Below are positions 3,877-44,829 of a DNA stretch of 64,000 nt, piece after piece (the stretch's first letter is position 1; the number at the start of each line of letters is the position of its first letter). The notes under the pieces were generated by a model. It ran no database searches. It had not been told where the DNA came from and saw nothing but the letters and a program-made list of their open reading frames with translations. Location of the stretch: positions 267,848-331,847 of the forward strand of contig CP064998.1 of NCBI GenBank assembly GCA_016700035.1. Direction: 5' to 3'. The DNA is from a bacterium. GTDB lineage: Bacteria > Patescibacteriota > Saccharimonadia > CAILAD01 > GCA-016700035. The position numbers and the translations under genes were made by a program.

Positions 3877-5253
3877 ATGCTATTGCGAAAACGTGCAGAA
3901 GATTCAAACCAACATCCTGTGGCTGAAAATGGTTCGTATACAGCGTTTCGAAAACGAAGATTTTCACGTCGCTCTAAGATTATAGTAGCTGTTTTGGTAG
4001 TTTTTCTACTGGCCGTACCAATAGTGTTATTGGCTAAAAGTCTCTATGCCTACAAGTCGATTGTACAGACTCATACTGGCGTATCGAGTGAGGTGCTCAC
4101 TAAAAAAGACACTGAGTTTGATTCTAAAACTGAAGCTGATGGCAGAGTAAATATCCTCTTGCTTGGCGTTGGAGATGCTGGGCATGCTGGTTCTACTCTT
4201 GCTGACACCATGATAGTTGCTAGTATTGATCCTGAGACAAAAGATGTTGCGATGTTGTCTTTGCCTCGCGATTTGTACGTATCAATTCCCAAAAATGGCA
4301 AGAACAAGATAAATGCCGCGCATGCCTTTGGTGAACTAAAAAAGGTAGGAGAAGGGCCAAATCTTTCAAAAGAAGTAGTTGGGCAAGTTTTGGATATTCC
4401 AATTCATAATTATTTAAGGGTCGATTTTACGGGTTTTAAAAAGGTAGTTGATGTTTTGGGTGGTGTGTCGGTTGATGTCCCTCAAGCTCTGTTGGATCCA
4501 GAATATCCTTGCGAAAAAGATGAAAGACGGGCCTGTGGTTTTTCATTGCAGTCTGGTACGCAGGCTATGAATGGATCGCTGGCTTTGCAGTATGCGCGAT
4601 GTCGTAAGGGGAATTGTGGTGATGATTTTGGTCGTGCCAGCCGACAGCAGCAAGTTTTGATGGCGTTACGGAAAAAGGCCCTACAACTCTCCACGCTAAC
4701 TAACCCAACTAAATTAGCTAATGTTATTGATACGGCTGGATCGCATATTAGAACCGATTTAACAATGGCTGAGTTGACACGTTTAGCCGATATCTTAAAA
4801 GATGTGAAGTCTGAGCAAGTTCGCTCTAAAGTCATTGATTCTGAGAGTGAAAAATTGGTGCAAACCGCTACGATTGCCGGAGCTAGTGTGGTAATTCCGG
4901 TGGAAGGTGATGGAAAGTTTGATCATATTCGGAATTTTACCCATAGTTTGTTTTATGATAGACATATTGCCGATGAGAAAGTACCGGTGACAATTATTGA
5001 TGCTTCGACTAACCCTAAGCTTGTTACGGCTACGGTAGAGCGCCTTAAGGGGTATGGTTATAAGGTTGTTGAAGTGCAGAAAGTTGAACCGAAAACTAAT
5101 TCAGAACTAATTGACGGTACTGGCGGTAAGGCAAAATATACCAGACGTTATCTTGAGGCTCGATTTGGGCTGACTGCCAGTGAGAGTACGGCTCATGGCG
5201 AAGGTGTTACTCTGATTATTGGTAGTAAGAATAATATCAAAAATGGAGATTAA
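3877..5253 (+). CDS. LytR-CpsA-Psr (LCP) family cell-wall glycopolymer transferase
   Basis: N-terminal TM; LCP core 'VNILLLGVGD...STLADTMIVASID...MLSLPRDLYVSIP'; C-terminal LytR_C-like region. Confidence 0.75.
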   Translation: MLLRKRAEDSNQHPVAENGSYTAFRKRRFSRRSKIIVAVLVVFLLAVPIVLLAKSLYAYKSIVQTHTGVSSEVLTKKDTEFDSKTEADGRVNILLLGVGDAGHAGSTLADTMIVASIDPETKDVAMLSLPRDLYVSIPKNGKNKINAAHAFGELKKVGEGPNLSKEVVGQVLDIPIHNYLRVDFTGFKKVVDVLGGVSVDVPQALLDPEYPCEKDERRACGFSLQSGTQAMNGSLALQYARCRKGNCGDDFGRASRQQQVLMALRKKALQLSTLTNPTKLANVIDTAGSHIRTDLTMAELTRLADILKDVKSEQVRSKVIDSESEKLVQTATIAGASVVIPVEGDGKFDHIRNFTHSLFYDRHIADEKVPVTIIDASTNPKLVTATVERLKGYGYKVVEVQKVEPKTNSELIDGTGGKAKYTRRYLEARFGLTASESTAHGEGVTLIIGSKNNIKNGD

Positions 5254-5255
5254 CA

Positions 5256-6035
5256 GTGGTCCGTAGGGGGAATTTCTTAACACCATCACAGCGCATATTG
5301 ATTACTCACATTCTGTGTTTGGCGGTTGCACTAGGCATAACAATGTTGGGTGGATCGTGGGTTTGGCTGGCGGTTATTGCAACCACCACCATTACTGTTG
5401 TTACGGTGTCTCGGCTTTTAGTGCAGCGATCAGGTAGGATAGTTTTTACTCGCTCGCTTGAGCCGGTTATTTTAGTAGTCTTTGGTCAGCTTTATCTCGG
5501 CTTATTACAGCTAACGTATGAGCTGCCATTGTGGCAACAGGCTGGTTTTTTGATAATTATTTTTGTTCTGCAGATACGATATTTATTAATGCAGTTTAGG
5601 AGTCAGGTTGCCCATACTCAAACCGGCTTTACAGCTCTGTTATTACTACTAGTCAATACAACATGGGTTTTAATGCTCAGTCGCGATGCGGTAGCTGGCT
5701 TTATAACTATTATTATTGCCTGGTTGGTAAATTATATTGTGGTGCATTATTGGCTGGAGCGAATAGGTTATCATAATTCGTTTTTAGCGGCTGTTTGGTC
5801 GCTTATAGCAGTAGAGATGTTAGTAATAGCAAGTTCTGCATTGGTATTTTATACCATCCCGCTAACTCTCTTGGTGGTCTCACGGACGGCATTATTTCTG
5901 GCAGTTATTGCATATACTTGGGGTAGTATGCTCACACTACACTCCCGACGCAAGCTATCAAAAAAGCTGGTGGTTGAGTATGGTATGATTTGTGGGTTTT
6001 TACTGATAGTATTGCTGGTAATGACGGGAATGTAG
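5256..6035 (+). CDS. Polytopic membrane protein, function unknown
   Basis: 259 aa with ~7-8 hydrophobic helices; GTG start 2 nt after the LCP stop (possible co-transcription). No recognisable motif. Confidence 0.5.
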   Translation: MVRRGNFLTPSQRILITHILCLAVALGITMLGGSWVWLAVIATTTITVVTVSRLLVQRSGRIVFTRSLEPVILVVFGQLYLGLLQLTYELPLWQQAGFLIIIFVLQIRYLLMQFRSQVAHTQTGFTALLLLLVNTTWVLMLSRDAVAGFITIIIAWLVNYIVVHYWLERIGYHNSFLAAVWSLIAVEMLVIASSALVFYTIPLTLLVVSRTALFLAVIAYTWGSMLTLHSRRKLSKKLVVEYGMICGFLLIVLLVMTGM

Positions 6036-30236: not shown

Positions 30237-31793
30237 ATGGATAATCAGACTTCAAAATATTGGCTTAATACAATTTTAGACAAAATTACTGCTCGTAAGT
30301 CGAGCGGTAGGATTTTAGTGGCTTCGGGCATTACTCCATCTGGGCCCTATCACGTGGGTCATGCACGCGAGATTCTAACTGCTGAGGCCATACGTCGCGG
30401 ATTGGAGGGGCAGAACCGAGAAGCCTTACATATCCATAATGTTGACGACTCGGATGTTCTACGCAAGCGCTATCCGTATTTACCGGAGTCTTTTGAAAAA
30501 GAGGTGGGTAAGCCAGTCTATTTAGTCCCTGCACCAGATGGCAGTACTGGTAGCTATGCTGATTATTATTTCTCGGAGTATGCTAGTGCAGCAAAAAAGC
30601 TGGAGATACCGATGGAGATCTGGCGCTCGCACGAGGAGTATCAGCGTGGCGTGTTTGCCGATGCGATTATTACTGCACTGACTCGGCGCGATGAGATTGC
30701 TAAGATTTTAGAAGTTGTTTCTCAACGTGAAGTCGCTAGAGATTGGCAACCGATTCAGATTCTAGACATCACTACTAATAACTTACGAACGGCTGAGTTT
30801 TTAGGCTTTGATGCGGGTACTTATATGGTGGAGTATCGCGCTTCGGATGGTGCTATCCATCAGGCTGATGTTCGGACGGGCGCCGTGAAGTTGGATTGGC
30901 GTGTGGATTGGCCGGCGCGTTGGGCTATTTTAGGTGTGGATGTGGAAGGTTTCGGTAAAGAACACGCTACTAAGGGTGGTAGTTATGATACCGGAGCAGC
31001 TATTGTGCGTGAGATATTTGATGCTGAGCCACCAATTCCGGTGCCATTCAATCCGATTAACCTAAAGGGAGACAATCAGAAAATGAGCTCTTCTTTGGGG
31101 AATTTAGTGACAATTGGTGATGCTCTTAAGGTTATACCTCCTGATATTTTGCGCTACTTTGTCTTTAAGAGCTTACCGCAGAAAGTCTTAGCCTTTGATA
31201 CTGGAGTTGGTATGGCGCAATTAATTGACGAGTATGCTACAACTGAGATGGCAGTACGTGCTGGAGAGCCAACCGTCTTTCGTGAGGCTTGGGAGATATC
31301 GGTTTTAGATCAGAGTCATGCCACAGTTTCGACAGTACCTTTTACGCACCTGGCCACCGTCTATCAGGCGGCTCAAGGTGATAATGAAAGGGTGTTGGAG
31401 CTATTAACTAAGACCGGGCACGCTCAAGCCGTACGAGAAGATGCTACCGTAATTGAGCGCGAGCTGGAATATGTGGCGGCCTGGTTAGAAAAGTTTGCAC
31501 CAGAGTCAATTAAGTTCACTGTTTTAGAGACTACCCCCAAGTTGGATTTGAGTGTATCTCAGCAGGATTTCTTGAGTGGCTTAGTTGAGCGACTTAATCA
31601 AGTTGCCTGGGAGGGAGATGTCTTACAGGCCACAATCTTTGCTGTGGCTCAGGCGGTCGAATTGCAGCCCAAGCAGGCCTTTTCAACTCTATACGAAGCG
31701 TTTATTGGCAAAACTGCTGGACCAAAGCTAGGGCCATTTTTAGTTAGCCTGGAAAAAGATTTTGTTTTGGCTCGACTGAGAGATTTACTCTAG
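30237..31793 (+). CDS. lysK: Class I lysyl-tRNA synthetase (archaeal/spirochaete type)
   Basis: Collinear with class I LysRS: 'SGITPSGPYHVGHAREI' (HIGH region), 'GAVKLDWRVDWPARW', 'KMSSSLGN' (KMSKS region) and C-terminal 'FLVSLEKDFVLARL'. Confidence 0.8.
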   Translation: MDNQTSKYWLNTILDKITARKSSGRILVASGITPSGPYHVGHAREILTAEAIRRGLEGQNREALHIHNVDDSDVLRKRYPYLPESFEKEVGKPVYLVPAPDGSTGSYADYYFSEYASAAKKLEIPMEIWRSHEEYQRGVFADAIITALTRRDEIAKILEVVSQREVARDWQPIQILDITTNNLRTAEFLGFDAGTYMVEYRASDGAIHQADVRTGAVKLDWRVDWPARWAILGVDVEGFGKEHATKGGSYDTGAAIVREIFDAEPPIPVPFNPINLKGDNQKMSSSLGNLVTIGDALKVIPPDILRYFVFKSLPQKVLAFDTGVGMAQLIDEYATTEMAVRAGEPTVFREAWEISVLDQSHATVSTVPFTHLATVYQAAQGDNERVLELLTKTGHAQAVREDATVIERELEYVAAWLEKFAPESIKFTVLETTPKLDLSVSQQDFLSGLVERLNQVAWEGDVLQATIFAVAQAVELQPKQAFSTLYEAFIGKTAGPKLGPFLVSLEKDFVLARLRDLL

Positions 31794-36101: not shown

Positions 36102-39100
36102 ATGGTAGAAAAACAAGGCCCTAATATTGGCGACGCCACACCAGAAGGTGTTGGGAAACTAGCTCGTGAACTGCGCGAGATTGAGCAAAAGATGCAAAGA
36201 GCCTTTGATGAGCGCGAGTGGGCGATTGAAGATCCGGATATTGATCGAGGTAATGCTTCGCTGGAGCGGGCTGATACAGACTTAGAACGCTTGAAGAGTG
36301 AGCGGAGTCGTGTTTTAAACGAAATGGCCGGTCGGTTTGAGGGCCAGAGTGGTGATGAGCCCCTAATACCGGTTAAAGATGGAACCACTCGGCCAGAAGT
36401 TCAGCCAACACTAACTACCAAGCCCGAAATTAGCCCCGATGACCCCTATCGCTTTGCCGGCCGACCAACTGATGAGATAAAGCGTAGCTTGCGTGGAATG
36501 AAGGGCTGGCGCGGTGTTGAGACACGAGTTAATCGTCGATTTGGTGATTCGTTGGGTGGTAGTGTGGCGCCAGCAGAGATTTTTCTTAATGAGTTAGCAC
36601 GCGAAGTAAAAGATGGGATGAGGCCTGTTACGCGGTCGCTGTGGTCCGAATATTATGATCGCTATAATCCAGACGGTACGGTGAATCCCGAGCCAGCTAA
36701 AAAGCAACCAAAAAATAATTCAGATAAATATCAGCCACAGGCTCAAGCTAAAAAAGCTCAAACTAAGACGCAAGGAACAAAAACTACTCAGCGAGTTAGG
36801 TATTTTGACCCAGATGATCACGATCCAGCCGATGAAGCCGAACGGTATAATGTGCCACCTGAAGAGTGGAGGCAATCAACTCACGACGAGGTCTTGCACG
36901 GTGGTAGTGAAAGTGGTTATGATGAGGACGATATATTAGATAGGAGAGACAAAATGCGATCATCTGGAGGAACTGGACCTGAAACTGGAACTGAACCTGA
37001 ACCTGACTCAGAGACAAGAGATCCGATGCGCCATCTCGACAGTGATTTAAGTGGTGACTTGCGTGATATCCTGGAAGGGCGCAGTGGTGGTGAAGAGCAA
37101 AGGCGTGCGCTAGAAGATAATGACACTGAGGCTTTCTATGGTGCACCACCTAGCCCGATTGCCAATGAAACTGACCGTATTATTGATGAGAATGATACCG
37201 AAGCTTATTATTCAACTTCACGTGGCACGCAGACAACTAGAACTGGAGCGTCAGGTGTGCAGACTAATTTTGATCGACCCACTCCACCAACCCCAGCTGG
37301 TAATACCGAAGCCCAGCCTCAGCCCATGAGTCGGGTTGAGCGTCGGGAGTCGATTGAGAATAATTATGAGTTCGAAATTGGTGGCGTGACGTTTAAAAAT
37401 GGTGAAATAGTTGATTATACGGAAGCCGATGGCGATAAGGCTCGACATATGGTAATTCAGAAGATTGGCGAAAATCCACCCAACTTAAAACTACTTAATT
37501 TGGAAACTGGTACAGAATTTGCTATTAGCGAGCAGAGTATTTCGCGTATTGAAAAGCTGCAAGATGCTGGTGGCAGGCCGCCTGAAGATGATGATGACGA
37601 TGGTGAAGGTAGAAGGCGTGAAGGTGGAGAGCCATACCAGCGTGGAAGCTACATTGATGGAGTACCGAAGGTCCCTGCTCCAGGTGAGGTTTTAGCTCTT
37701 GCTGAAGGGGCACGCTTAAATGTTGACGCACAAATTCAGGCAGTAGCTCAGGCCAAGGAGCAGCGGGAAAAATTCTTTGGTCGTAATGAGCCTGATCAGG
37801 CAGGGCTGGATTCTGCTAACCAAGGCCTAGAGAATGCTTATGCGCAGTATATGGATAATTGGTCGGCTGTATTGGCGGACTATCGTGGAGTTGAAAACGA
37901 CTTAAATGATTATAAGACAGACATGCAGGAGAAAATTACAGTATTAGATCAGTCTATTGCACGACTGGAGGCCAATACTACTCTGCCACCAGAGTTGCGT
38001 CAATATCGGATTAATATTCGTCGTGAGCGTATGCTAGAGGCTCGCGCAGCTATACAGAAGTGCGATCAGCAAATTGAAGCCCTACATCGAGGTGTGGAGA
38101 GTGTGGTGAGGCAAATTGAAATAGAAATGACGCTGGAGATGGCGCAGACTCGCTCAAAGATTGAGGCAGCCCAGTGCGCACTCAAGGTGGGTACTAAATC
38201 TGAGAAATTCCGTACTTTCTGGCGGTCTAAGAATGGTCGTCGGGCGCGTTTGGCAGTTGGTGCCGCCCTTGGTATAACTGGTGCGATGATTGCCATGACA
38301 GGTGTTGGCGCTGGGGTGGGTAGTGCTATGGTAGCTGGAGCCGGTGCTGTGATGCGCGGTACAGGTGGTTTTATGGCTACTGAAGCTGGCTGGAATATGT
38401 TGCATAATCGCCGAGCTGATAAGGCGGATTTGCGTGGCCGCCAAGATAGATGGGGTGCTCAGACGGCTAGAACACAATTTGAGGCCGGCCGTGATATGGG
38501 CTATATGACTGAACATGCCGAGGCTTTAGGGGCTGAGAATATGTCTGAAGCTGAACTGGCGGCATTTTTAGAGGCAAATGCCGGGGCGCTATATGGTGAG
38601 CGAATACTACGTGGTGCTCTAGCTGGTAATGTAGAATCATCTGCGGCGGTGGCTGGCGCATTATTGCAATCTCAGCTCGATCGCGTTAATAGTGACGCTA
38701 AGTCTAACCGTCGAGCTAAGCGAGGAGCCGCCGTGGTTGGTGTGGCGGCAGCTGCAGCACCGTTTGTTCTCAGGCATTTCCTAGATGGTCCACCAACCCA
38801 TGAGCCACCAAAAGGCCCACCAAAGCCACCTACTCCAGATTCTCCATATGATCCTAATGCGGCCCGTATGAGGGGGATCTTGAGTACCGATGAGAGCGCG
38901 GCTCAGAACTGGCAAACCATGACAGATCACTATCGCACGTTAAGTCCTTCTGAGCAGGCTGTATATAAAGCTGCAGAGCAAGCCTACGATAAGGGCTACG
39001 AAGCCGCATTAAAGGGCATGCACTTGTCGCATGCTGAATTAGATAGGGTTAACTTTATATTAGGTCGAGGATCCTTTGATGTTGGTAATGAGCAGATGAC

Positions 39101-39203
39101 GCAAATTACGCGTAGTATCGCACAGCAAGTTCAGAATGGCGCATCAACTGAGAGTATTTTAAAGCTTTACGGTATGCCGACAGATCGCTTAACTGGAGCT
39201 TGA
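36102..39203 (+). CDS. Giant (1033-aa) hypothetical protein: N-terminal coiled-coil, acidic low-complexity middle, coiled-coil, glycine-zipper membrane segment, Pro-rich C-terminal domain
   Basis: Long uninterrupted ORF with no signal peptide. 'GAALGITGAMIAMTGVGAGVGSAMVAGAGAVM' and 'AAVVGVAAAAAPFVL' hydrophobic segments. Short repeat 'DNDTEAFYG/ENDTEAYYS'. No recognisable enzymatic motif. Confidence 0.55.
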   Translation: MVEKQGPNIGDATPEGVGKLARELREIEQKMQRAFDEREWAIEDPDIDRGNASLERADTDLERLKSERSRVLNEMAGRFEGQSGDEPLIPVKDGTTRPEVQPTLTTKPEISPDDPYRFAGRPTDEIKRSLRGMKGWRGVETRVNRRFGDSLGGSVAPAEIFLNELAREVKDGMRPVTRSLWSEYYDRYNPDGTVNPEPAKKQPKNNSDKYQPQAQAKKAQTKTQGTKTTQRVRYFDPDDHDPADEAERYNVPPEEWRQSTHDEVLHGGSESGYDEDDILDRRDKMRSSGGTGPETGTEPEPDSETRDPMRHLDSDLSGDLRDILEGRSGGEEQRRALEDNDTEAFYGAPPSPIANETDRIIDENDTEAYYSTSRGTQTTRTGASGVQTNFDRPTPPTPAGNTEAQPQPMSRVERRESIENNYEFEIGGVTFKNGEIVDYTEADGDKARHMVIQKIGENPPNLKLLNLETGTEFAISEQSISRIEKLQDAGGRPPEDDDDDGEGRRREGGEPYQRGSYIDGVPKVPAPGEVLALAEGARLNVDAQIQAVAQAKEQREKFFGRNEPDQAGLDSANQGLENAYAQYMDNWSAVLADYRGVENDLNDYKTDMQEKITVLDQSIARLEANTTLPPELRQYRINIRRERMLEARAAIQKCDQQIEALHRGVESVVRQIEIEMTLEMAQTRSKIEAAQCALKVGTKSEKFRTFWRSKNGRRARLAVGAALGITGAMIAMTGVGAGVGSAMVAGAGAVMRGTGGFMATEAGWNMLHNRRADKADLRGRQDRWGAQTARTQFEAGRDMGYMTEHAEALGAENMSEAELAAFLEANAGALYGERILRGALAGNVESSAAVAGALLQSQLDRVNSDAKSNRRAKRGAAVVGVAAAAAPFVLRHFLDGPPTHEPPKGPPKPPTPDSPYDPNAARMRGILSTDESAAQNWQTMTDHYRTLSPSEQAVYKAAEQAYDKGYEAALKGMHLSHAELDRVNFILGRGSFDVGNEQMTQITRSIAQQVQNGASTESILKLYGMPTDRLTGA

Positions 39204-39230
39204 TAAGTTTTTAAGGTAAAGGAGTAAAAT

Positions 39231-39569
39231 ATGAATCCAGTACAGACAAATCAACCAGATATTTTCACCAGGCTCGGTATGGCTTCGGCTAGCGATGAGC
39301 AAAAACAACAGTTAGCCGAGCAGTTGGCAGACCTGACTATGACACGAGTTTTGAGTAAAGTAGCTGACCAAATTTCAGAAGAGCAGATGGCCGAACTGGA
39401 GCGCTTAATCGACGCCGGTGGCGATCAGGTGGATGATCGATTGCGTCAGTTAGTACCAGGTTATGATGAGCTAGTGGCCTCAACTGCTCGAGAGGTTGGC
39501 GATAAATTGGTTGCCGATCAGCAGGCTGTACTTGCTAAAATGCGTGAAAAAGCCGCTCAGCAACACTAA
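39231..39569 (+). CDS. Small all-helical hypothetical protein (possible partner or chaperone of the giant protein)
   Basis: 112 aa; strong RBS AAAGGAG 7 nt upstream; predicted helix-turn(GG)-helix; 27 nt after the giant ORF. Confidence 0.45.
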   Translation: MNPVQTNQPDIFTRLGMASASDEQKQQLAEQLADLTMTRVLSKVADQISEEQMAELERLIDAGGDQVDDRLRQLVPGYDELVASTAREVGDKLVADQQAVLAKMREKAAQQH

Positions 39570-39666
39570 GAATAACCAATAAAAACATTGACCATGCTAT
39601 GTATTTATGGTATGGTTCTTTTGTTATTTGTACCTGACAATCTACGACCCTACGAAGGGAAGAGCA

Positions 39667-41097
39667 ATGAACGACAAGAGTATGAGCTGGGAGGAATTCC
39701 AGCAGGCCGATCCGGCTGAGCTGGTTGCTCAGTGTGGTGCGTTGTCGGATGCCGATTCGAACGGCACTAAGTCTGGCACTACACCTCGACGCGTCCAGCT
39801 CAAGGCTGGAACGCTGGTGGCACGCCTCATCGAGGCTGACTCAACGCTAGACGAGGCGTCGGCACTGCGAGTGCTCGAGCAGATCCTCAATGAGGGTCGG
39901 ACCGAGCCACAGCAACAGCCAGTAGTCTTGCGTAGTGGCAGTCAATTCGTGCCGGCTTCGCTGGCTGATGCGGTTGATGTCTACATCGCCGGTCTGTCAG
40001 TTGAGTCGATGACTTCGGATGCCAATCTGGCTGAAGAGTCGCACGAAGGCACTTCAGAATCCAGCGATGAGCCACCGCCTTTTTACGGCGATGTGCCCAC
40101 GCAGGATTTTCAGGTTCCGAATGAAGATTCGGATCACGACGAGCCGATCTACGTCGTGGAGTTGCTCGGCGATGAGCCATTGTCCTTGGACGAGCTCATC
40201 ACTCAAGCCAAGCAGAGGTTGTTACCAGTAGCCAATCAGGCCTACGAATATCTGCATAACAAGCAGGAGCATGAGGCCAATGCGGTTGCTGGCGAACTAG
40301 CCAAGATGCTGTGGTACTTTGCCACCGTCATATACCGCACTGCCGGCTGGGATGACGAGCGCATCGAAGCTCAGCTCTGCAAGGGTAAGGATAGCGAAAT
40401 CGTAACCGATCCCAATCGGATGCGGTTTGCTTGGTTCCAGCGGACGGCGCACGCCATGTTCCGTCAAGAGACCAAGACGCCAGAGCAGTTCTTGGCCGAG
40501 TTCAAGTTCCCAGGGCTAGCTCGACGTAAGCCAGCGCCCGCGCAGCAGCCGGATAATCAGGAGCTTCCTTCTGATGAAGATCTGGCCGATGTGGTGAGCG
40601 ATACGGCTTGGGCTGATGAGGGTGATGCACTACCGCCAGCTGATGAGGCTGAGTCGGTGGTGATTGAGCCTGGCCCGATCGTTGTCGACGAAGTTGATGG
40701 GCGTCGCCGAGTTTCTAGTGGCGATATCCCTCCGCATCCGCGTCATATTGTGTATGGTGGCGGGCCGAAGCCTTCGACTGAGAGGTCGGTGCGCGAGCGG
40801 CTCGATGCTTTGCGTGATAGCTTGGCAGCCACGGTTGACGATGCGGCAACGGATGATTCCGATATTGAGACGCCGGCTAGTGACGAGTCGCCTTTGGGTG
40901 GCGCAATCGGTGGGCGAGAGCGCTCGGATGAGTCGATTCTGGCCAACCTACCGGATGAGGTGGTGCTTGCGGCCATCGATACTGTTCTGGCGGACTCCGA
41001 CCCAGAGCAGTGTTGGGCCTATCGTTCACCGCTAGCGGTGCGTGAGGAGGCCGACCGGCGTCTACTTGTGGAGTATCGTCAGCTGAGTGCTGCTTGA
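39667..41097 (+). CDS. Acidic hypothetical protein (moderately high GC)
   Basis: 476 aa from ATG 39667 (GAAGGGAAG upstream). Asp/Glu-rich with no TM segment. GC ~55-58 %. Confidence 0.45.
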   Translation: MNDKSMSWEEFQQADPAELVAQCGALSDADSNGTKSGTTPRRVQLKAGTLVARLIEADSTLDEASALRVLEQILNEGRTEPQQQPVVLRSGSQFVPASLADAVDVYIAGLSVESMTSDANLAEESHEGTSESSDEPPPFYGDVPTQDFQVPNEDSDHDEPIYVVELLGDEPLSLDELITQAKQRLLPVANQAYEYLHNKQEHEANAVAGELAKMLWYFATVIYRTAGWDDERIEAQLCKGKDSEIVTDPNRMRFAWFQRTAHAMFRQETKTPEQFLAEFKFPGLARRKPAPAQQPDNQELPSDEDLADVVSDTAWADEGDALPPADEAESVVIEPGPIVVDEVDGRRRVSSGDIPPHPRHIVYGGGPKPSTERSVRERLDALRDSLAATVDDAATDDSDIETPASDESPLGGAIGGRERSDESILANLPDEVVLAAIDTVLADSDPEQCWAYRSPLAVREEADRRLLVEYRQLSAA

Positions 41098-41188
41098 TAT
41101 TTCGCTGGGGTGGGCTGGGTAATACCAACTCGCCCTATTTTTTTGTTAACAATCTTTGGCATAAGCATATTGACTTTATTAAAAACTA

Positions 41189-41217
41189 TTGCAAAATTAC
41201 TACTTTTATGCTATTAT
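41189..41217 (+). promoter_or_regulatory. Sigma70-like promoter (TTGCAA-17-TATTAT) in an AT-rich spacer immediately upstream of the high-GC gene pair
   Basis: Read from the sequence; it sits 65 nt upstream of ATG 41282. Confidence 0.4.
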
Positions 41218-41281
41218 GCGTGAGTAATCGTACCTAGCCCGGGTGTCAGAGACTCCCGGCACAACAACCCCAGGAGGGGAA

Positions 41282-42073
41282 ATGACCAATCGCACAGCAA
41301 GGACTGAGGCGGCTGAGATCGCCCTGGCCCGGCACCACCGTGCCGAGCATGACAACTTCGAGCGTCAGCTCGAAGAGGTGGGCGTCGAGATCGCCCGCTT
41401 GAACGCGGCCATCGCCGACCGGAACGACGAGCTGACCCAGGCGGCCAGCCAGACGTTCCGAACCATCCTCCGTGAGGAGGTGGCACAGTTGGAGCGCCAG
41501 CTGGCTGAGCGTGGCGCCGAGCAGCAGGACATCCTGCAGCAGCTCGGTACGCTCCGCACCACCGTGGCGAACCACGACCGTCGCCTCGGCACGCTGGAGA
41601 GCAGGACGACCTGCCTGCGCGGCGATGTCGACGGGCTGCAGGCCCATTCTGAGGCGCATGCCTCGGCGATCTCGCAGATCCAGGCTGCCAACGGCTGGAT
41701 CCCGCCGGCTGCTGCTGCGGTCGCCGGCTTCATCACCTACCTCTTCATCGAGTGGGTGGTGGACGCTTGGCGCGTTGGCCAGGTGTCCACCCACATCCAG
41801 TGGGCCTGGACTCTGGCTGTCGCCGCGATCGTTGGGCTCATCACGAGCCTGCTGACGGGTGAAGGGCACATCAGTGCCCGGACTAGCTCGTCGGCATCGG
41901 CGGGAGCGGGCACCACACCCGCACTCCCACCGGCCGACCAGCCGGTTACCGCCACACAGGTGGTGGCAACACCGGCACCGGCACCGGCAGGTCAGGTGGC
42001 ACCGCCACCCCCTCCCACTGGTCAGTTTCCGACCGTGCAGGCTGCAGCCGCAGCCGTCGCACAGACGAACTGA
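41282..42073 (+). CDS. Hypothetical coiled-coil membrane protein with Ala/Pro-rich tail (very high GC)
   Basis: ATG 41282 preceded by AGGAGGGG. Long coiled-coil, then 2 TM helices, then a PAPAPAG/PPPPPTG tail. ~65-68 % GC by eye. Antisense ORFs in the track are high-GC artefacts. Confidence 0.5.
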   Translation: MTNRTARTEAAEIALARHHRAEHDNFERQLEEVGVEIARLNAAIADRNDELTQAASQTFRTILREEVAQLERQLAERGAEQQDILQQLGTLRTTVANHDRRLGTLESRTTCLRGDVDGLQAHSEAHASAISQIQAANGWIPPAAAAVAGFITYLFIEWVVDAWRVGQVSTHIQWAWTLAVAAIVGLITSLLTGEGHISARTSSSASAGAGTTPALPPADQPVTATQVVATPAPAPAGQVAPPPPPTGQFPTVQAAAAAVAQTN

Positions 42074-42079
42074 CTCGCT

Positions 42080-42125
42080 CCTCTAGGGCCTTCGGGCCCT
42101 AGAGGAAACTCTTTCAAGTTTTATT
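42080..42125 (+). terminator. GC-rich hairpin terminator
   Basis: Perfect 11-bp stem CCTCTAGGGCC-TTCG-GGCCCTAGAGG (tetraloop) followed by a T-rich stretch. Confidence 0.5.
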
Positions 42126-42238
42126 CTGGCCTGGAGTACAAATCTCTGGTAAAGCAGAGGTAAGTTCTCAAAGTCAGAACCAGAACCTGAACATCCATGT
42201 GTCGCCGAGAGCGACACCGATCCGAAAGGAGGTGCGCC

Positions 42239-43348
42239 ATGCGCGCACCCAAGTCACCTCAGCAGAAGTTCTTCTTTGGGCTTCTGGGGGCAGCGGCAGC
42301 ACTGCTGCTAGCCTTCCCCGTCATCACGGCGATCGCCGACCCAGGTCCGCCCGATGCCGGCGCCGACCCAACCACCACCACGGTGGCTCCGGCCACGTGT
42401 GGCGCCACGCCGCACTTCTTTGCTCGCGATACCGCAGGTAACCAGTTCGGCCCTCCGGCTCCGGAGGATCCGGCCAACGTGGCAGCCACGCAGGCGGACT
42501 TCGCCGCGCGACGCTGCGCTGACGCCGCCCTATTGGTGGGTGACTCCGAGTATCTCTTCAACGAGTTCTCGGATCCCGCCATCCGCGTCCAGAAGACCAT
42601 CGATTTGATGGCCAACCCGGACGCCTGGTCTCTGGCTGAACTCCGCTTCCAGGCGCGTCTCAACGAGGCCACCAAGGTGGAGATCGTCGAGATGGGTGGC
42701 CGCTATCAGACCATGGACATGGTGGACCAGGGGAGAATCATCCCTGAAATCTACCAGATCCCGGTCGAAGCCAAGCCGTTCCGCGTGATCCGCTACACGT
42801 TCCCGGACGGGTCCGTGAAGCAGTTCAAGCTGAACTGTGGGTATCAGCCGGTGGAGCAGAACTTCCCGGCCAGTGTGCCAGGATCGGGAGCTCCGCCGGC
42901 GCCGAACCAGCCGTCGCACCCGGTCAAGCCGGCAAAGCCCGGTAAGCCCGGACGGCCGACCACCACGGTGCCGACAACGGTCAAGCCCGGCAAGTGCGCC
43001 GGACAGACCGGGCCGTACTGTGGCAAGCCAGACTCCGGTCCGGAGTTCGACCCCGTCAACTCCAACCCGCAAAAGCCGACCCCGGGCTACGTGCCCGGCA
43101 ACGCCGAGCGGGTGATCGACCAGCAGAACCGAGACGCGGAAGCGACTCGGAACGGCGCCGATCCCTACCGGCCGACCCAGTACGGCACACCCGGCACGGG
43201 CACTGGCTCTGGCGTCACCACGCCATCTGGTGCAACCGACGGGCCGTCTGGCACCACCACCGGTGGAAGTGCCGGGGCCTCCAACCCCGACATGAACACC
43301 AATGTCGGTGGCCAGACCAATACGGGCACAGTGGCTCCGCCTCCGTGA
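42239..43348 (+). CDS. Secreted hypothetical protein with Pro/Thr/Gly-rich C-terminal region (very high GC)
   Basis: ATG 42239 preceded by AAGGAGG. Signal peptide 'FFFGLLGAAAALLLAFPVITAIA'. Globular middle with Cys pairs. Low-complexity PTTTVPTT / GTGTGSG tail. Confidence 0.5.
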   Translation: MRAPKSPQQKFFFGLLGAAAALLLAFPVITAIADPGPPDAGADPTTTTVAPATCGATPHFFARDTAGNQFGPPAPEDPANVAATQADFAARRCADAALLVGDSEYLFNEFSDPAIRVQKTIDLMANPDAWSLAELRFQARLNEATKVEIVEMGGRYQTMDMVDQGRIIPEIYQIPVEAKPFRVIRYTFPDGSVKQFKLNCGYQPVEQNFPASVPGSGAPPAPNQPSHPVKPAKPGKPGRPTTTVPTTVKPGKCAGQTGPYCGKPDSGPEFDPVNSNPQKPTPGYVPGNAERVIDQQNRDAEATRNGADPYRPTQYGTPGTGTGSGVTTPSGATDGPSGTTTGGSAGASNPDMNTNVGGQTNTGTVAPPP

Positions 43349-43385
43349 CCGTGGCCTGAGCTTTCGGATGTTCAGGTCTTTCTAG

Positions 43386-43425
43386 CCCCAGGGCGCCTCG
43401 TGCGCCCTGGGGTTTTTCCTTTTAT
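43386..43425 (+). terminator. Strong intrinsic terminator closing the high-GC block
   Basis: Perfect 11-bp stem CCCCAGGGCGC-ctcgt-GCGCCCTGGGG followed by TTTTTCCTTTTATT. Confidence 0.6.
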
Positions 43426-43461: not shown

Positions 43462-43490
43462 TTGACAAAATACTATAATTCTGATACAAT
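43462..43490 (+). promoter_or_regulatory. Sigma70-like promoter TTGACA-17-TACAAT upstream of the LPQTG protein gene
   Basis: Consensus -35 and near-consensus -10 with 17-nt spacing; ~150-nt leader to ATG 43642. Confidence 0.4.
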
Positions 43491-43641: not shown

Positions 43642-44829
43642 ATGAAAATTTCGGCTAAGCTCCGTTATGCTGTGCTGGCAACTGCTCTTATTGCAGTTCC
43701 GGCCGTAGCTGGTGCTACTAGTCAGGTTGCCTTAGAGGGTCGTACTGCAGTTGCTAACCAAACTGCTGGTGCTACCACCTATACAAAATCGACTAGTGCT
43801 AAAACCGATGAAGTGGTAAAAGTACAGATTTGGTACCACAACAAAGAAGAAGCCAACTCTGGTAAAGTAGCAAACAATCTTAAAGTAAAAATCGATCTCC
43901 CAACTCAAACTGGCAAAAGCCAAGTTGTTAAGGGAACCATAAGTGCTGATAACGCTAATACCGTTACCGACACTGCAAACGTCAACCTCGCTCTGGATCA
44001 GAGCCGTCTGGAATATATTCCAGGTTCCGCTCAGTGGCGCCACAACAAGGGTACCAACGAGCAGCCCAACTGGGTAACTGAATCTATCAGTGACCAAGTT
44101 GTTGGAACTGGAATTGTTCTTGAGAACGCAAAGCCTTGCTTCAACTACGAAGCCAATGTTACAGTACTTGCTCGGGTTAAAACTCCTGCAGTTTCGATCA
44201 CTAAACAAGTTCGTGTACTTGGTGAAAAAGAGTGGAAGACTGAAAACACCGCCAAAGCTGGTGACACACTTGAGTACTTGATTTCCTACAAAAACGAAGG
44301 CAATACAACTCTCAAGAACGTTATCATTGCTGATAACATGCCAGCTAACGTTACCTACGTACCAGGTACTACGATGATTAAAAATGCATCAAATCCAACT
44401 GGTACAAAAGTAAACTCTGACAATATCACCAAAGGTGGTATTAATGTCGGAAATTACACCCCAGGTAGCAATGGTTTTGTATGGTTCCAGGCTAAGATTG
44501 ATTCAAATCTAAAACCAGGTAACTATACCTTCAAGAACGTTGGTATTGTGAAGCCAGAAGGTATGGGTGAATACTTCAATGCAGCAAAAACTACGGTTGT
44601 TGTTGCACCGAAGCCAACTACCCCACCTACTACTCCACCTACGCCAATTACTCCAAAGCCTACAACTCCAGTAACTCCGGTAACCCCTGAGCAGCCTAGC
44701 TTGCCTCAGACTGGTATCGAAACTGGCGTAGCAGGTCTGTTGGGAACGGGTGGTCTCACCTATGCTGGTTATTTCTACCGAAAGAGCCGTAAAGGTTTGA
44801 GTACTGCGCTTAAAAACGTTGTAAAGTAA
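43642..44829 (+). CDS. Cell-wall-anchored protein with a DUF11-like repeat domain and an LPQTG sortase signal
   Basis: Signal peptide. 'GDTLEYLISYKNEGNTTLKNVIIADNMPANVTYVPGT' is a DUF11-type motif. PT-rich linker, then 'LPQTG', a TM helix and 'YRKSRKG'. Confidence 0.65.
   Translation: MKISAKLRYAVLATALIAVPAVAGATSQVALEGRTAVANQTAGATTYTKSTSAKTDEVVKVQIWYHNKEEANSGKVANNLKVKIDLPTQTGKSQVVKGTISADNANTVTDTANVNLALDQSRLEYIPGSAQWRHNKGTNEQPNWVTESISDQVVGTGIVLENAKPCFNYEANVTVLARVKTPAVSITKQVRVLGEKEWKTENTAKAGDTLEYLISYKNEGNTTLKNVIIADNMPANVTYVPGTTMIKNASNPTGTKVNSDNITKGGINVGNYTPGSNGFVWFQAKIDSNLKPGNYTFKNVGIVKPEGMGEYFNAAKTTVVVAPKPTTPPTTPPTPITPKPTTPVTPVTPEQPSLPQTGIETGVAGLLGTGGLTYAGYFYRKSRKGLSTALKNVVK

Follow-up and report, generated by a model that had tools for sequence, protein, structure and literature searches.

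In a 64,000-nt stretch of DNA from a bacterium of the Saccharimonadia (GenBank assembly GCA_016700035.1, contig CP064998.1, forward-strand positions 267,848 to 331,847; hereafter, the window), we analyzed two adjacent genes that encode proteins of 1033 and 112 amino acids (aa). We give roughly even chances to the reading that this pair, native to Saccharibacteria and probably needed for growth, is a scaffold that resides in the membrane and spans the envelope, with a small cytoplasmic protein as its obligate partner. Saccharibacteria are very small bacteria that grow on other bacterial cells, and their genomes commonly encode orphan membrane proteins. The pairing of the large protein with a DUF5663 protein is undescribed and no known family or system fits it by sequence or fold, which makes it new at the family level, although a new mechanism is not thereby demonstrated. 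An earlier note on this DNA, made from the letters of the sequence, had likened the pair to a secreted or membrane-inserting effector with a cognate chaperone or immunity protein.

Two real and native genes

The pair consists of the following features:

36102..39203, (+) strand: large open reading frame (ORF), 1033 aa, ATG start (ORF list)
39218..39224, (+) strand: Shine-Dalgarno sequence AAAGGAG of the small gene (sequence reading)
39231..39569, (+) strand: small ORF, 112 aa (ORF list), a DUF5663 protein (PF18908)

The ORF list confirmed the positions and lengths that the earlier note had given for both ORFs. Its description of a strong ribosome-binding site and a 27-nt gap ahead of the small gene also proved correct, with the AAAGGAG lying 6 nt ahead of the ATG. 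The large ORF itself starts 39 nt after the secA stop codon. Both ORFs are real genes under purifying selection, with ratios of nonsynonymous to synonymous substitution rates (dN/dS) of 0.11 for the large gene and 0.047 for the small gene in comparison with a 92%-identical relative (locus L016). By region, the same comparison gave 0.03 to 0.07 for the structured parts of the large protein and 0.26 to 0.30 for its disordered parts. Within the close clade, amino acid identity ranged from 82 to 100% for the small protein, a housekeeping-like level, and from 56 to 94% for the large protein.

The pair is native, vertically inherited and housekeeping-like in its behavior. Its GC content at third codon positions (GC3; 0.38 to 0.42) is like that of the flanking genes (0.37 to 0.42 across secA, the pair, the LPXTG gene and prfB), the divergence of both proteins between loci parallels that of SecA and SerRS, and every locus holds one copy each of the large and small genes.

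A narrow orphan family and a DUF5663 partner

The large protein belongs to a narrow orphan family that is restricted to Saccharibacteria. It had no match in Pfam, NCBIfam, PHROG, PADLOC or the PDB sequences, and no Pfam domain was found in any family member scanned. A word-index protein search with the large protein returned 7 homologues, and a HMMER profile search of 1.84 billion representative proteins returned 21 relatives at E ≤ 1e-3, at least two of which (P0050 and P0051) are marginal. Search patterns matched 3 of ~185,000 species genomes, and no relative was present among 2.9 million viral contigs. A word-index search with the 16-sequence core alignment yielded a single protein, as low-complexity words saturated the candidate list. 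A metagenome scan with the DUF5663 alignment found nothing, and a second scan with another alignment (A2) added two further loci; the core alignment (A3) was too divergent for pattern derivation. The related loci come from metagenome-assembled genomes of Candidatus Saccharibacteria. In the most distant member, P0050 (1430 aa; locus L014), some 370 additional residues extend the C-terminus, and a LysM-like motif, possibly split, scored there below threshold (E 0.049).

In our own Pfam scan, the small protein scored 19.6 bits against PF18908 (cutoff, 23.7; E 0.0014), with the match covering profile positions 4 to 79 of 84. PF18908 is also precomputed on a 100%-identical database entry (P0008) and on 22 of the 23 other homologues of the small protein, and it is assigned to the small neighbors in the related loci. 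On these grounds, we accept the small protein as a DUF5663 member. Its AlphaFold2 model consists of four helices, with a predicted local distance difference test (pLDDT) score of 83.6, and the protein is acidic, with an isoelectric point (pI) of 4.5. The earlier description of this protein as helix-turn-helix-like did not hold, and a helix-turn-helix regulator is ruled out by the lack of any match to a profile of that family together with the acidic pI. We also compared the DUF5663 partner with RbcX and the small Tim (Tim9/Tim10) helical chaperones.

The two genes adjoin in every locus read

In each of the 18 related loci, drawn from ~11 lineages with two kinds of genomic context, we found a DUF5663 gene directly adjoining the large gene. 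Three of the 18 came to light via the small protein alone, and the large homologue was present there at 25 to 33% identity. The earlier note had asked whether the small gene might be missing from homologous loci; it adjoins the large gene in every locus read, and the adjacency is kept in relatives whose large proteins are about 20 to 25% identical. The usual context of the pair is secA...prfB, and in two loci (L012 and L014) it lies beside the ribosomal-protein/rpoA gene cluster. In L014 (7659–12293), the gene order is also swapped, with the DUF5663 gene upstream of the large gene across a 12-nt gap. Persistence of the adjacency across divergence, changed contexts and a swapped order makes a functional partnership of the two proteins a well-supported reading of these sequences.

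In the window, the genes run in the order greA, class I lysS, serS, hpf, secA, large gene, small gene, genes for 496, 276 and 383 aa, an LPXTG/DUF11 gene and prfB. This order is maintained in close and more distant relatives, where murA, ftsE, ftsX and a CHAP hydrolase gene lie further downstream.

Architecture of the large protein

The segments of the large protein, from the N-terminus to the C-terminus, are as follows:

36423..36695, (+) strand: conserved N-terminal region, aa 108–198 (DDPYR..GRP..EIK..L....GW...PV...W), present in 13 of the 15 members tested
37116..37142, (+) strand: short linear motif DNDTEAFYG, aa 339–347, in an acidic disordered region (alignment)
37188..37214, (+) strand: second motif copy ENDTEAYYS, aa 363–371, an insertion in the window clade only
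37365..37562, (+) strand: small beta-rich domain, aa ~422–487, nearly invariant in the close clade (dN/dS 0.027)
37704..38231, (+) strand: three-helix coiled-coil bundle, aa ~535–710, putatively cytoplasmic, ending in the basic motif KFxxWRxxxxxR
38247..38357, (+) strand: Gly/Ala-zipper hydrophobic helical hairpin, aa 716–752 (Kyte-Doolittle peaks; helix-turn-helix in AlphaFold2)
38358..38717, (+) strand: helical domain between the hydrophobic segments, aa 753–872, putatively cytoplasmic (pLDDT 75–87)
38724..38777, (+) strand: transmembrane helix, aa 875–892 (Kyte-Doolittle 1.7)
38784..38855, (+) strand: proline-rich linker, aa 895–918, putatively extracytoplasmic and wall-spanning (sequence reading)
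38856..39200, (+) strand: C-terminal six-helix domain, aa 919–1033, putatively extracytoplasmic (pLDDT 73–89)

The N-terminus is hydrophilic, in agreement with the earlier note's view that the large ORF has no signal peptide. Family members that carry the conserved N-terminal region are all ~900 to 1000 aa long; the region has a dN/dS of 0.26 and no PDB profile match. Within DNDTEAFYG, residues N340, T342, E343, Y346 and G347 are invariant in the 8 closer homologues, and the motif is recognizable in more distant ones. The internal repeat described earlier is present in that both copies can be read, but the second is a clade-specific insertion limited to the window, P0001 and P0002, and the other homologues have a single, invariant copy. 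The compact central segment that had been pointed out (GVTFKNGEIV...IQKIG, aa 428–456) falls within the beta-rich domain, which is probably an SH3-like small barrel, as its sole PDB profile match is a weak one to a designed SH3-like small beta-barrel (E 0.004). This domain is diverged or absent in one lineage (L010).

The AlphaFold2 model, which covers aa 515–1033 and was built from a 16-sequence alignment, is all-helical with a pLDDT of 76.6. It contains a three-helix bundle (aa 535–556, 562–624 and 630–681; pLDDT 83–97), a helix-turn-helix over the Gly/Ala stretch (pLDDT <50), and a confident helical domain at aa ~755–870, followed by a long helix that contains aa 875–892. Of the two long coiled coils claimed earlier, one is supported, as a hairpin at aa ~562–681 in this model of aa 515–1033. 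The Gly-rich hydrophobic stretch was found as described (Gly/Ala, aa 720–751), and a second hydrophobic helix (aa 875–892), absent from the earlier description, shows zero nonsynonymous changes relative to L016. The proline-rich stretch also exists, but at aa 895–918 rather than at the C-terminus, and a conserved helical domain of ~115 aa comes after it.

Alignments place the best-conserved part of the large protein at aa ~405–895, and its most conserved features are the juxtamembrane motifs KFxxWR...R, MRGxGGYMGxE and SDAKSNRRAK, the latter two lying in the helical domain at aa 753–872 (dN/dS 0.06). The C-terminal domain, the proline-rich linker and the disordered regions are variable or swapped between lineages. 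Specifically, the linker (pLDDT <50) differs in length among homologues, and the C-terminal domain, for which we found no PDB or Pfam match, is kept in 12 family members and replaced or extended in others (P0037 and P0050).

Predicted membrane topology

Charges around the two hydrophobic segments are conserved across all 16 aligned homologues. The charge is +4 to +7 before the hairpin, which is followed by a net basic stretch, and +5 to +8 before the helix at aa 875–892, which is followed by a near-neutral one; the intervening helical domain is thus basic at both ends in 16 of 16. These conserved basic flanks give the pattern of a resident membrane protein with the N-terminus inside and the C-terminus outside. 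The Gly/Ala hairpin is 30 to 36 aa long in all homologues, with a central G-P turn in most, which a re-entrant hairpin fits better than two full spans or one span, and it is likely a re-entrant or oligomerizing membrane element. We infer a topology in which the N-terminus lies inside, the hairpin sits in the inner leaflet, the loop after it remains inside, and one transmembrane helix leads to the proline-rich linker and C-terminal domain outside. This topology agrees with the conservation, in that the putatively cytoplasmic juxtamembrane motifs are the most conserved and some lineages have a different or longer predicted outer domain.

A probable counterpart in Candidatus Southlakia epibionticum

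A similar arrangement exists in the published genome of Ca. Southlakia epibionticum ML1 (Wang et al., Cell 2023, PMC10633639, Tables S1 and S2), where SEML1_0161 is a hypothetical protein of 767 aa with a Der p 5-like helical-bundle domain. SEML1_0162, which starts 13 nt downstream, is a DUF5663 gene and is followed by a second one, SEML1_0163 (PMC10633639). In transposon sequencing (Tn-seq) at T0/T1/T2, SEML1_0161 and SEML1_0162 were both called essential (GD/ES/ES), as were dnaA and dnaN, and SEML1_0163 was called NE/GD/GD (PMC10633639). The same study flagged DUF5663 as a core, Patescibacteria-enriched family and listed trigger-factor-C and LTXXQ-like structural matches for a DUF5663 paralogue (PMC10633639). 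Its text does not discuss SEML1_0161 to SEML1_0163, and we found no later paper citing these genes; a literature search on DUF5663, SEML1_0161 to SEML1_0163 and Patescibacteria division scaffolds likewise found no study of these proteins.

The likeness to the window pair lies in a saccharibacterium that carries a large hypothetical helical-bundle ORF followed within 13 nt by a DUF5663 gene, neither of them functionally annotated. The differences lie in the length of the large ORF (767 versus 1033 aa), the presence of two DUF5663 paralogues, and the context (infB ... fmt/def versus secA ... prfB). Given that the adjacency of the large gene and DUF5663 is otherwise invariant, we consider it quite probable that SEML1_0161 is homologous to the large protein. 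The GD/ES/ES call belongs to the S. epibionticum pair, not to the pair in the window.

An envelope scaffold as the preferred reading

In the reading we prefer, the ~715 N-terminal residues of the large protein would be cytoplasmic, comprising acidic disorder with ND(T)EAFYG, the small beta-barrel and the three-helix bundle, and would recruit cytoplasmic partners. The Gly/Ala-zipper hairpin, which at 30 to 36 residues is too short to cross the bilayer twice, would dip into the inner leaflet and drive self-association or wedging. A cytoplasmic helical domain of ~120 aa would come next, then one true transmembrane helix, after which the proline-rich linker would carry the ~115-aa helical domain outside the membrane to reach the wall or surface. 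For the DUF5663 protein, which is acidic, the role would be that of an obligate subunit or of an assembly factor, and its most plausible binding site would be the basic, conserved cytoplasmic core. Such a scaffold would link cytoplasmic partners to the wall or surface, and its role in growth may lie in envelope biogenesis, in division or budding, or in the organization of host-contact sites.

Several points weigh against this reading. The term "scaffold" is generic, and we arrived at it mostly by excluding other readings; the topology draws on the positive-inside rule and on a shallow-alignment AlphaFold2 model in which the hairpin has a pLDDT below 50; physical binding of the large protein and DUF5663 is deduced; and the essentiality of the window pair would follow by analogy with S. 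epibionticum. Essentiality would not exclude an effector model, since an obligate epibiont may equally depend on its host-interaction effectors. Finally, the family profile has a weak match to the Hbl lytic component L1 (7nmq_A; E 8.5e-4), with an aligned region that starts in the helical bundle and extends into the Gly/Ala-rich hydrophobic hairpin.

Alternative explanations

It is possible, if unlikely, that the large protein has diverged strongly from a known division or morphogenesis scaffold of monoderm bacteria (EzrA, MapZ, RodZ, ZipA or DivIVA class), or is functionally analogous to one, with DUF5663 as an adaptor to FtsZ, FtsA or MreB. MapZ/LocZ, EzrA, RodZ and ZipA combine a large cytoplasmic disordered or coiled-coil part with a membrane anchor and a small extracytoplasmic domain, and the layout of the large protein (cytoplasmic disorder, coiled coil, membrane anchor and small outer domain) matches theirs. 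In most lineages, the neighborhood comprises mreB-mreC-mreD-pbp2 ... secA, the pair, and prfB-ftsE-ftsX-CHAP hydrolase, and the S. epibionticum pair has an essentiality profile similar to those of core cell-cycle genes. However, these neighbors are general housekeeping genes, and the pair also occurs beside the ribosomal-protein/rpoA cluster, away from the mre/fts genes. We detected no sequence or fold similarity to EzrA, DivIVA, MapZ, ZipA, RodZ or SepF, and the profile and fold searches did not yield the known cytoskeletal or divisome identity that, according to the earlier note, would have counted against its effector idea. MapZ/LocZ, EzrA, RodZ and ZipA also offer no counterpart to the Gly-zipper hairpin, the additional cytoplasmic domain or the obligate DUF5663 partner. 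Taken as a functional analogy, a division scaffold overlaps with the envelope scaffold that we prefer rather than competing with it. For the hairpin element alone, an analogy may be drawn with Mic10 of MICOS, in which a short Gly-rich helical hairpin with basic flanks drives oligomerization and membrane bending; its sequence and size are unrelated to those of the large protein.

We consider it unlikely that the large protein is an alpha-helical pore-former or translocator, like ClyA/Hbl or the translocators of type III secretion systems, which the small partner, as a chaperone, would hold in solution and which would be exported, e.g., by the saccharibacterial type IV secretion system (T4SS), its Gly-zipper hairpin then inserting in the host membrane, for example for nutrient extraction. 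The Hbl-L1 match points this way, as does the order of a long helical bundle, a hydrophobic hairpin and a return helix, which recalls ClyA-family toxins; the likeness to Hbl-L1, ClyA and Nhe comprises an elongated helical bundle, a Gly/Ala-rich hydrophobic hairpin of ~35 to 50 residues and the return helix. SmhA and MakA appear among the non-significant Foldseek matches, and Saccharibacteria rely on metabolites from their hosts and have a T4SS that is essential (PMC10633639). However, only one of the many ClyA-family PDB entries was matched, and it shares the unusual Gly/Ala composition; the match is driven by the coiled coil and the Gly/Ala-rich stretch, and other family members went unmatched. 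A fold search for the ClyA/Hbl/Nhe type (elongated helical bundle with a head or tongue hairpin) gave no significant match, the best Foldseek E-value being 0.35 and SmhA reaching a probability of 0.06 and a TM-score of 0.09. There is also no Pfam HBL (PF05791) or ClyA match, no signal peptide, no tripartite operon or set of paralogous components, and no linkage to T4SS genes in any locus read. Hbl, ClyA and Nhe lack three parts of the large protein, namely a 500-aa region at the N-terminus, a second transmembrane helix and a C-terminal domain, and the basic clusters that flank the hairpin and precede the second transmembrane helix fit a resident membrane protein. The earlier suggestion of a secreted or membrane-inserting effector thus found little support, with no signal peptide, toxin domain or secretion-system context and no similarity to pore-formers in the fold searches. 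More broadly, we found no effector, toxin, phage or defense signatures for the pair in Pfam, NCBIfam, PHROG, PADLOC or the viral contigs.

A related idea, which we regard as quite unlikely, is that the pair forms a Patescibacteria-specific host-interface device, in which DUF5663 holds or targets the large protein and the Gly-zipper hairpin inserts into or fuses with the host membrane at the contact site, forming the long-sought conduit by which these auxotrophic epibionts would draw metabolites from the host. If so, the Hbl-L1-like layout would reflect functional convergence with, or very remote kinship to, alpha-pore-forming toxins.

The two genes might also lack any physical or functional connection and simply be carried along, as co-transcribed passengers, in a strongly expressed operon, but this is very unlikely. 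Direct interaction of the two proteins is itself deduced, and DUF5663 is more widespread (Patescibacteria-enriched) than the detectable large-protein family (PMC10633639). Against this, the adjacency survives ~20 to 25% identity, a change of context and an order swap with tight spacing.

A polymorphic toxin with its cognate immunity protein is highly improbable. The gene order, a large gene followed closely by a small one, is all that recalls such systems. No library (Pfam, NCBIfam or PADLOC) revealed a toxin domain, and the large protein has a small helical domain as its C-terminal region. Conservation is much stronger in the small protein, a member of a Patescibacteria-wide core family, than in its large neighbor, the genes are single-copy with native composition and under purifying selection, and their order is reversed in one lineage (L014). 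The immunity role that had been proposed for the small protein is therefore unlikely, given its housekeeping-level conservation and the absence of a detectable toxin domain. Least credible of all is a prophage remnant of the tape-measure type, which the large ORF resembles in length and composition only (long and helical, with Gly-rich hydrophobic segments): the lack of any PHROG match and of any viral-contig relative effectively refutes a phage origin, and the pair occupies a core-gene position with native composition and no phage genes nearby.

The 3′ boundary of the pair and the genes downstream

The 3′ boundary of the pair is marked by one feature:

39588..39617, (+) strand: promoter-like TTGACC-17-TATGGT overlapping a palindrome, then a T-run (pattern scan)

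The intergenic region that contains it (39570–39666) is conserved at the DNA level across lineages, with a TG upstream within the promoter-like element. Even where the large proteins of two loci share only 30 to 60% identity, TTGAC and the -10 region are conserved, and the 11-bp palindrome is perfect in L016 and L001 (ACCATACCATA/TATGGTATGGT). The element may be a promoter with an operator, a terminator, or both.

The three genes that follow (p496, p276 and p383; 39667–43348) have a GC content of 0.58 to 0.68 and a GC3 of 0.61 to 0.78, and the GC3 of their orthologues in distant relatives (L001, L009, L011 and L013) is also high, at 0.67 to 0.85. L012 and L014, in which the pair has a different setting, lack them. 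The conserved promoter and palindrome, the change in composition and the absence of the downstream genes elsewhere indicate that the pair is a discrete unit. As for the GC anomaly, ancient, unameliorated uptake from high-GC DNA, perhaps of actinobacterial hosts, is possible, as is a local biased process.

The first of these genes, p496, evolves very fast (~30% identity where SecA is 87% identical). Its listed start at 39607 falls within the conserved promoter/hairpin, and its orthologues begin at the equivalent of the ATG at 39667 (MNDKSMSWEEF...), so its true product probably has 476 aa. The 276-aa protein (41243–42073) starts with a coiled coil, has two hydrophobic helices and ends in an Ala/Pro-rich tail. 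Its matches are non-significant and of the coiled-coil type: Bacillus_HBL (E 0.19), a PHROG "hemolysin" (E 0.004), ESAT6_3 (E 0.075), DruG and LmuB. A defense system was rejected, as PADLOC gave coiled-coil noise only, and only on this protein.

After the 383-aa gene lies a strong intrinsic-terminator-like hairpin (43384–43414; 13 bp, 10 GC pairs, T-run) with a sub-threshold Rfam match to sX11 (32 bits versus a cutoff of 70); no Rfam match in the region was above threshold. A sigma-70-like promoter (43462–43490; 11/12, extended -10) precedes the LPXTG/DUF11 gene, and together the terminator and promoter separate the p496–p383 block from that gene. The LPXTG gene (43642–44829) encodes a 395-aa surface protein with a signal peptide, a DUF11/CLIPPER repeat and an LPXTG anchor. 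Its identity is mosaic (100% to L016, 90% to L004 and 69% to L001), and its synonymous divergence (dS) from L016 is 0.10, with values of 0.2 to 0.5 for its neighbors. This mosaic similarity, unlike that of the core neighbors, which lack such a pattern, suggests recombination or recent exchange.

Upstream of the pair, a class I lysyl-tRNA synthetase gene (PF01921) lies between greA and serS in the window (30237–31793) and in most relatives. In L013, the greA–serS slot holds a class II-type synthetase (4134–5636; PF00152 plus an OB anticodon domain), which looks like an in-place displacement of one synthetase type by another.

Significance

Saccharibacteria and other Patescibacteria account for much of bacterial diversity, and many of their essential genes have no known function. 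The module described here is group-restricted, paired across deep divergence and under strong purifying selection, and it is probably the counterpart of a Tn-seq-essential pair in a tractable species. DUF5663 thereby gets its first concrete partner and context. Should the pair prove to be an envelope scaffold, it would supply a missing piece in the account of how these ultra-small cells divide or organize their envelope; if it has a host-interface role, it would bear directly on how epibionts feed.

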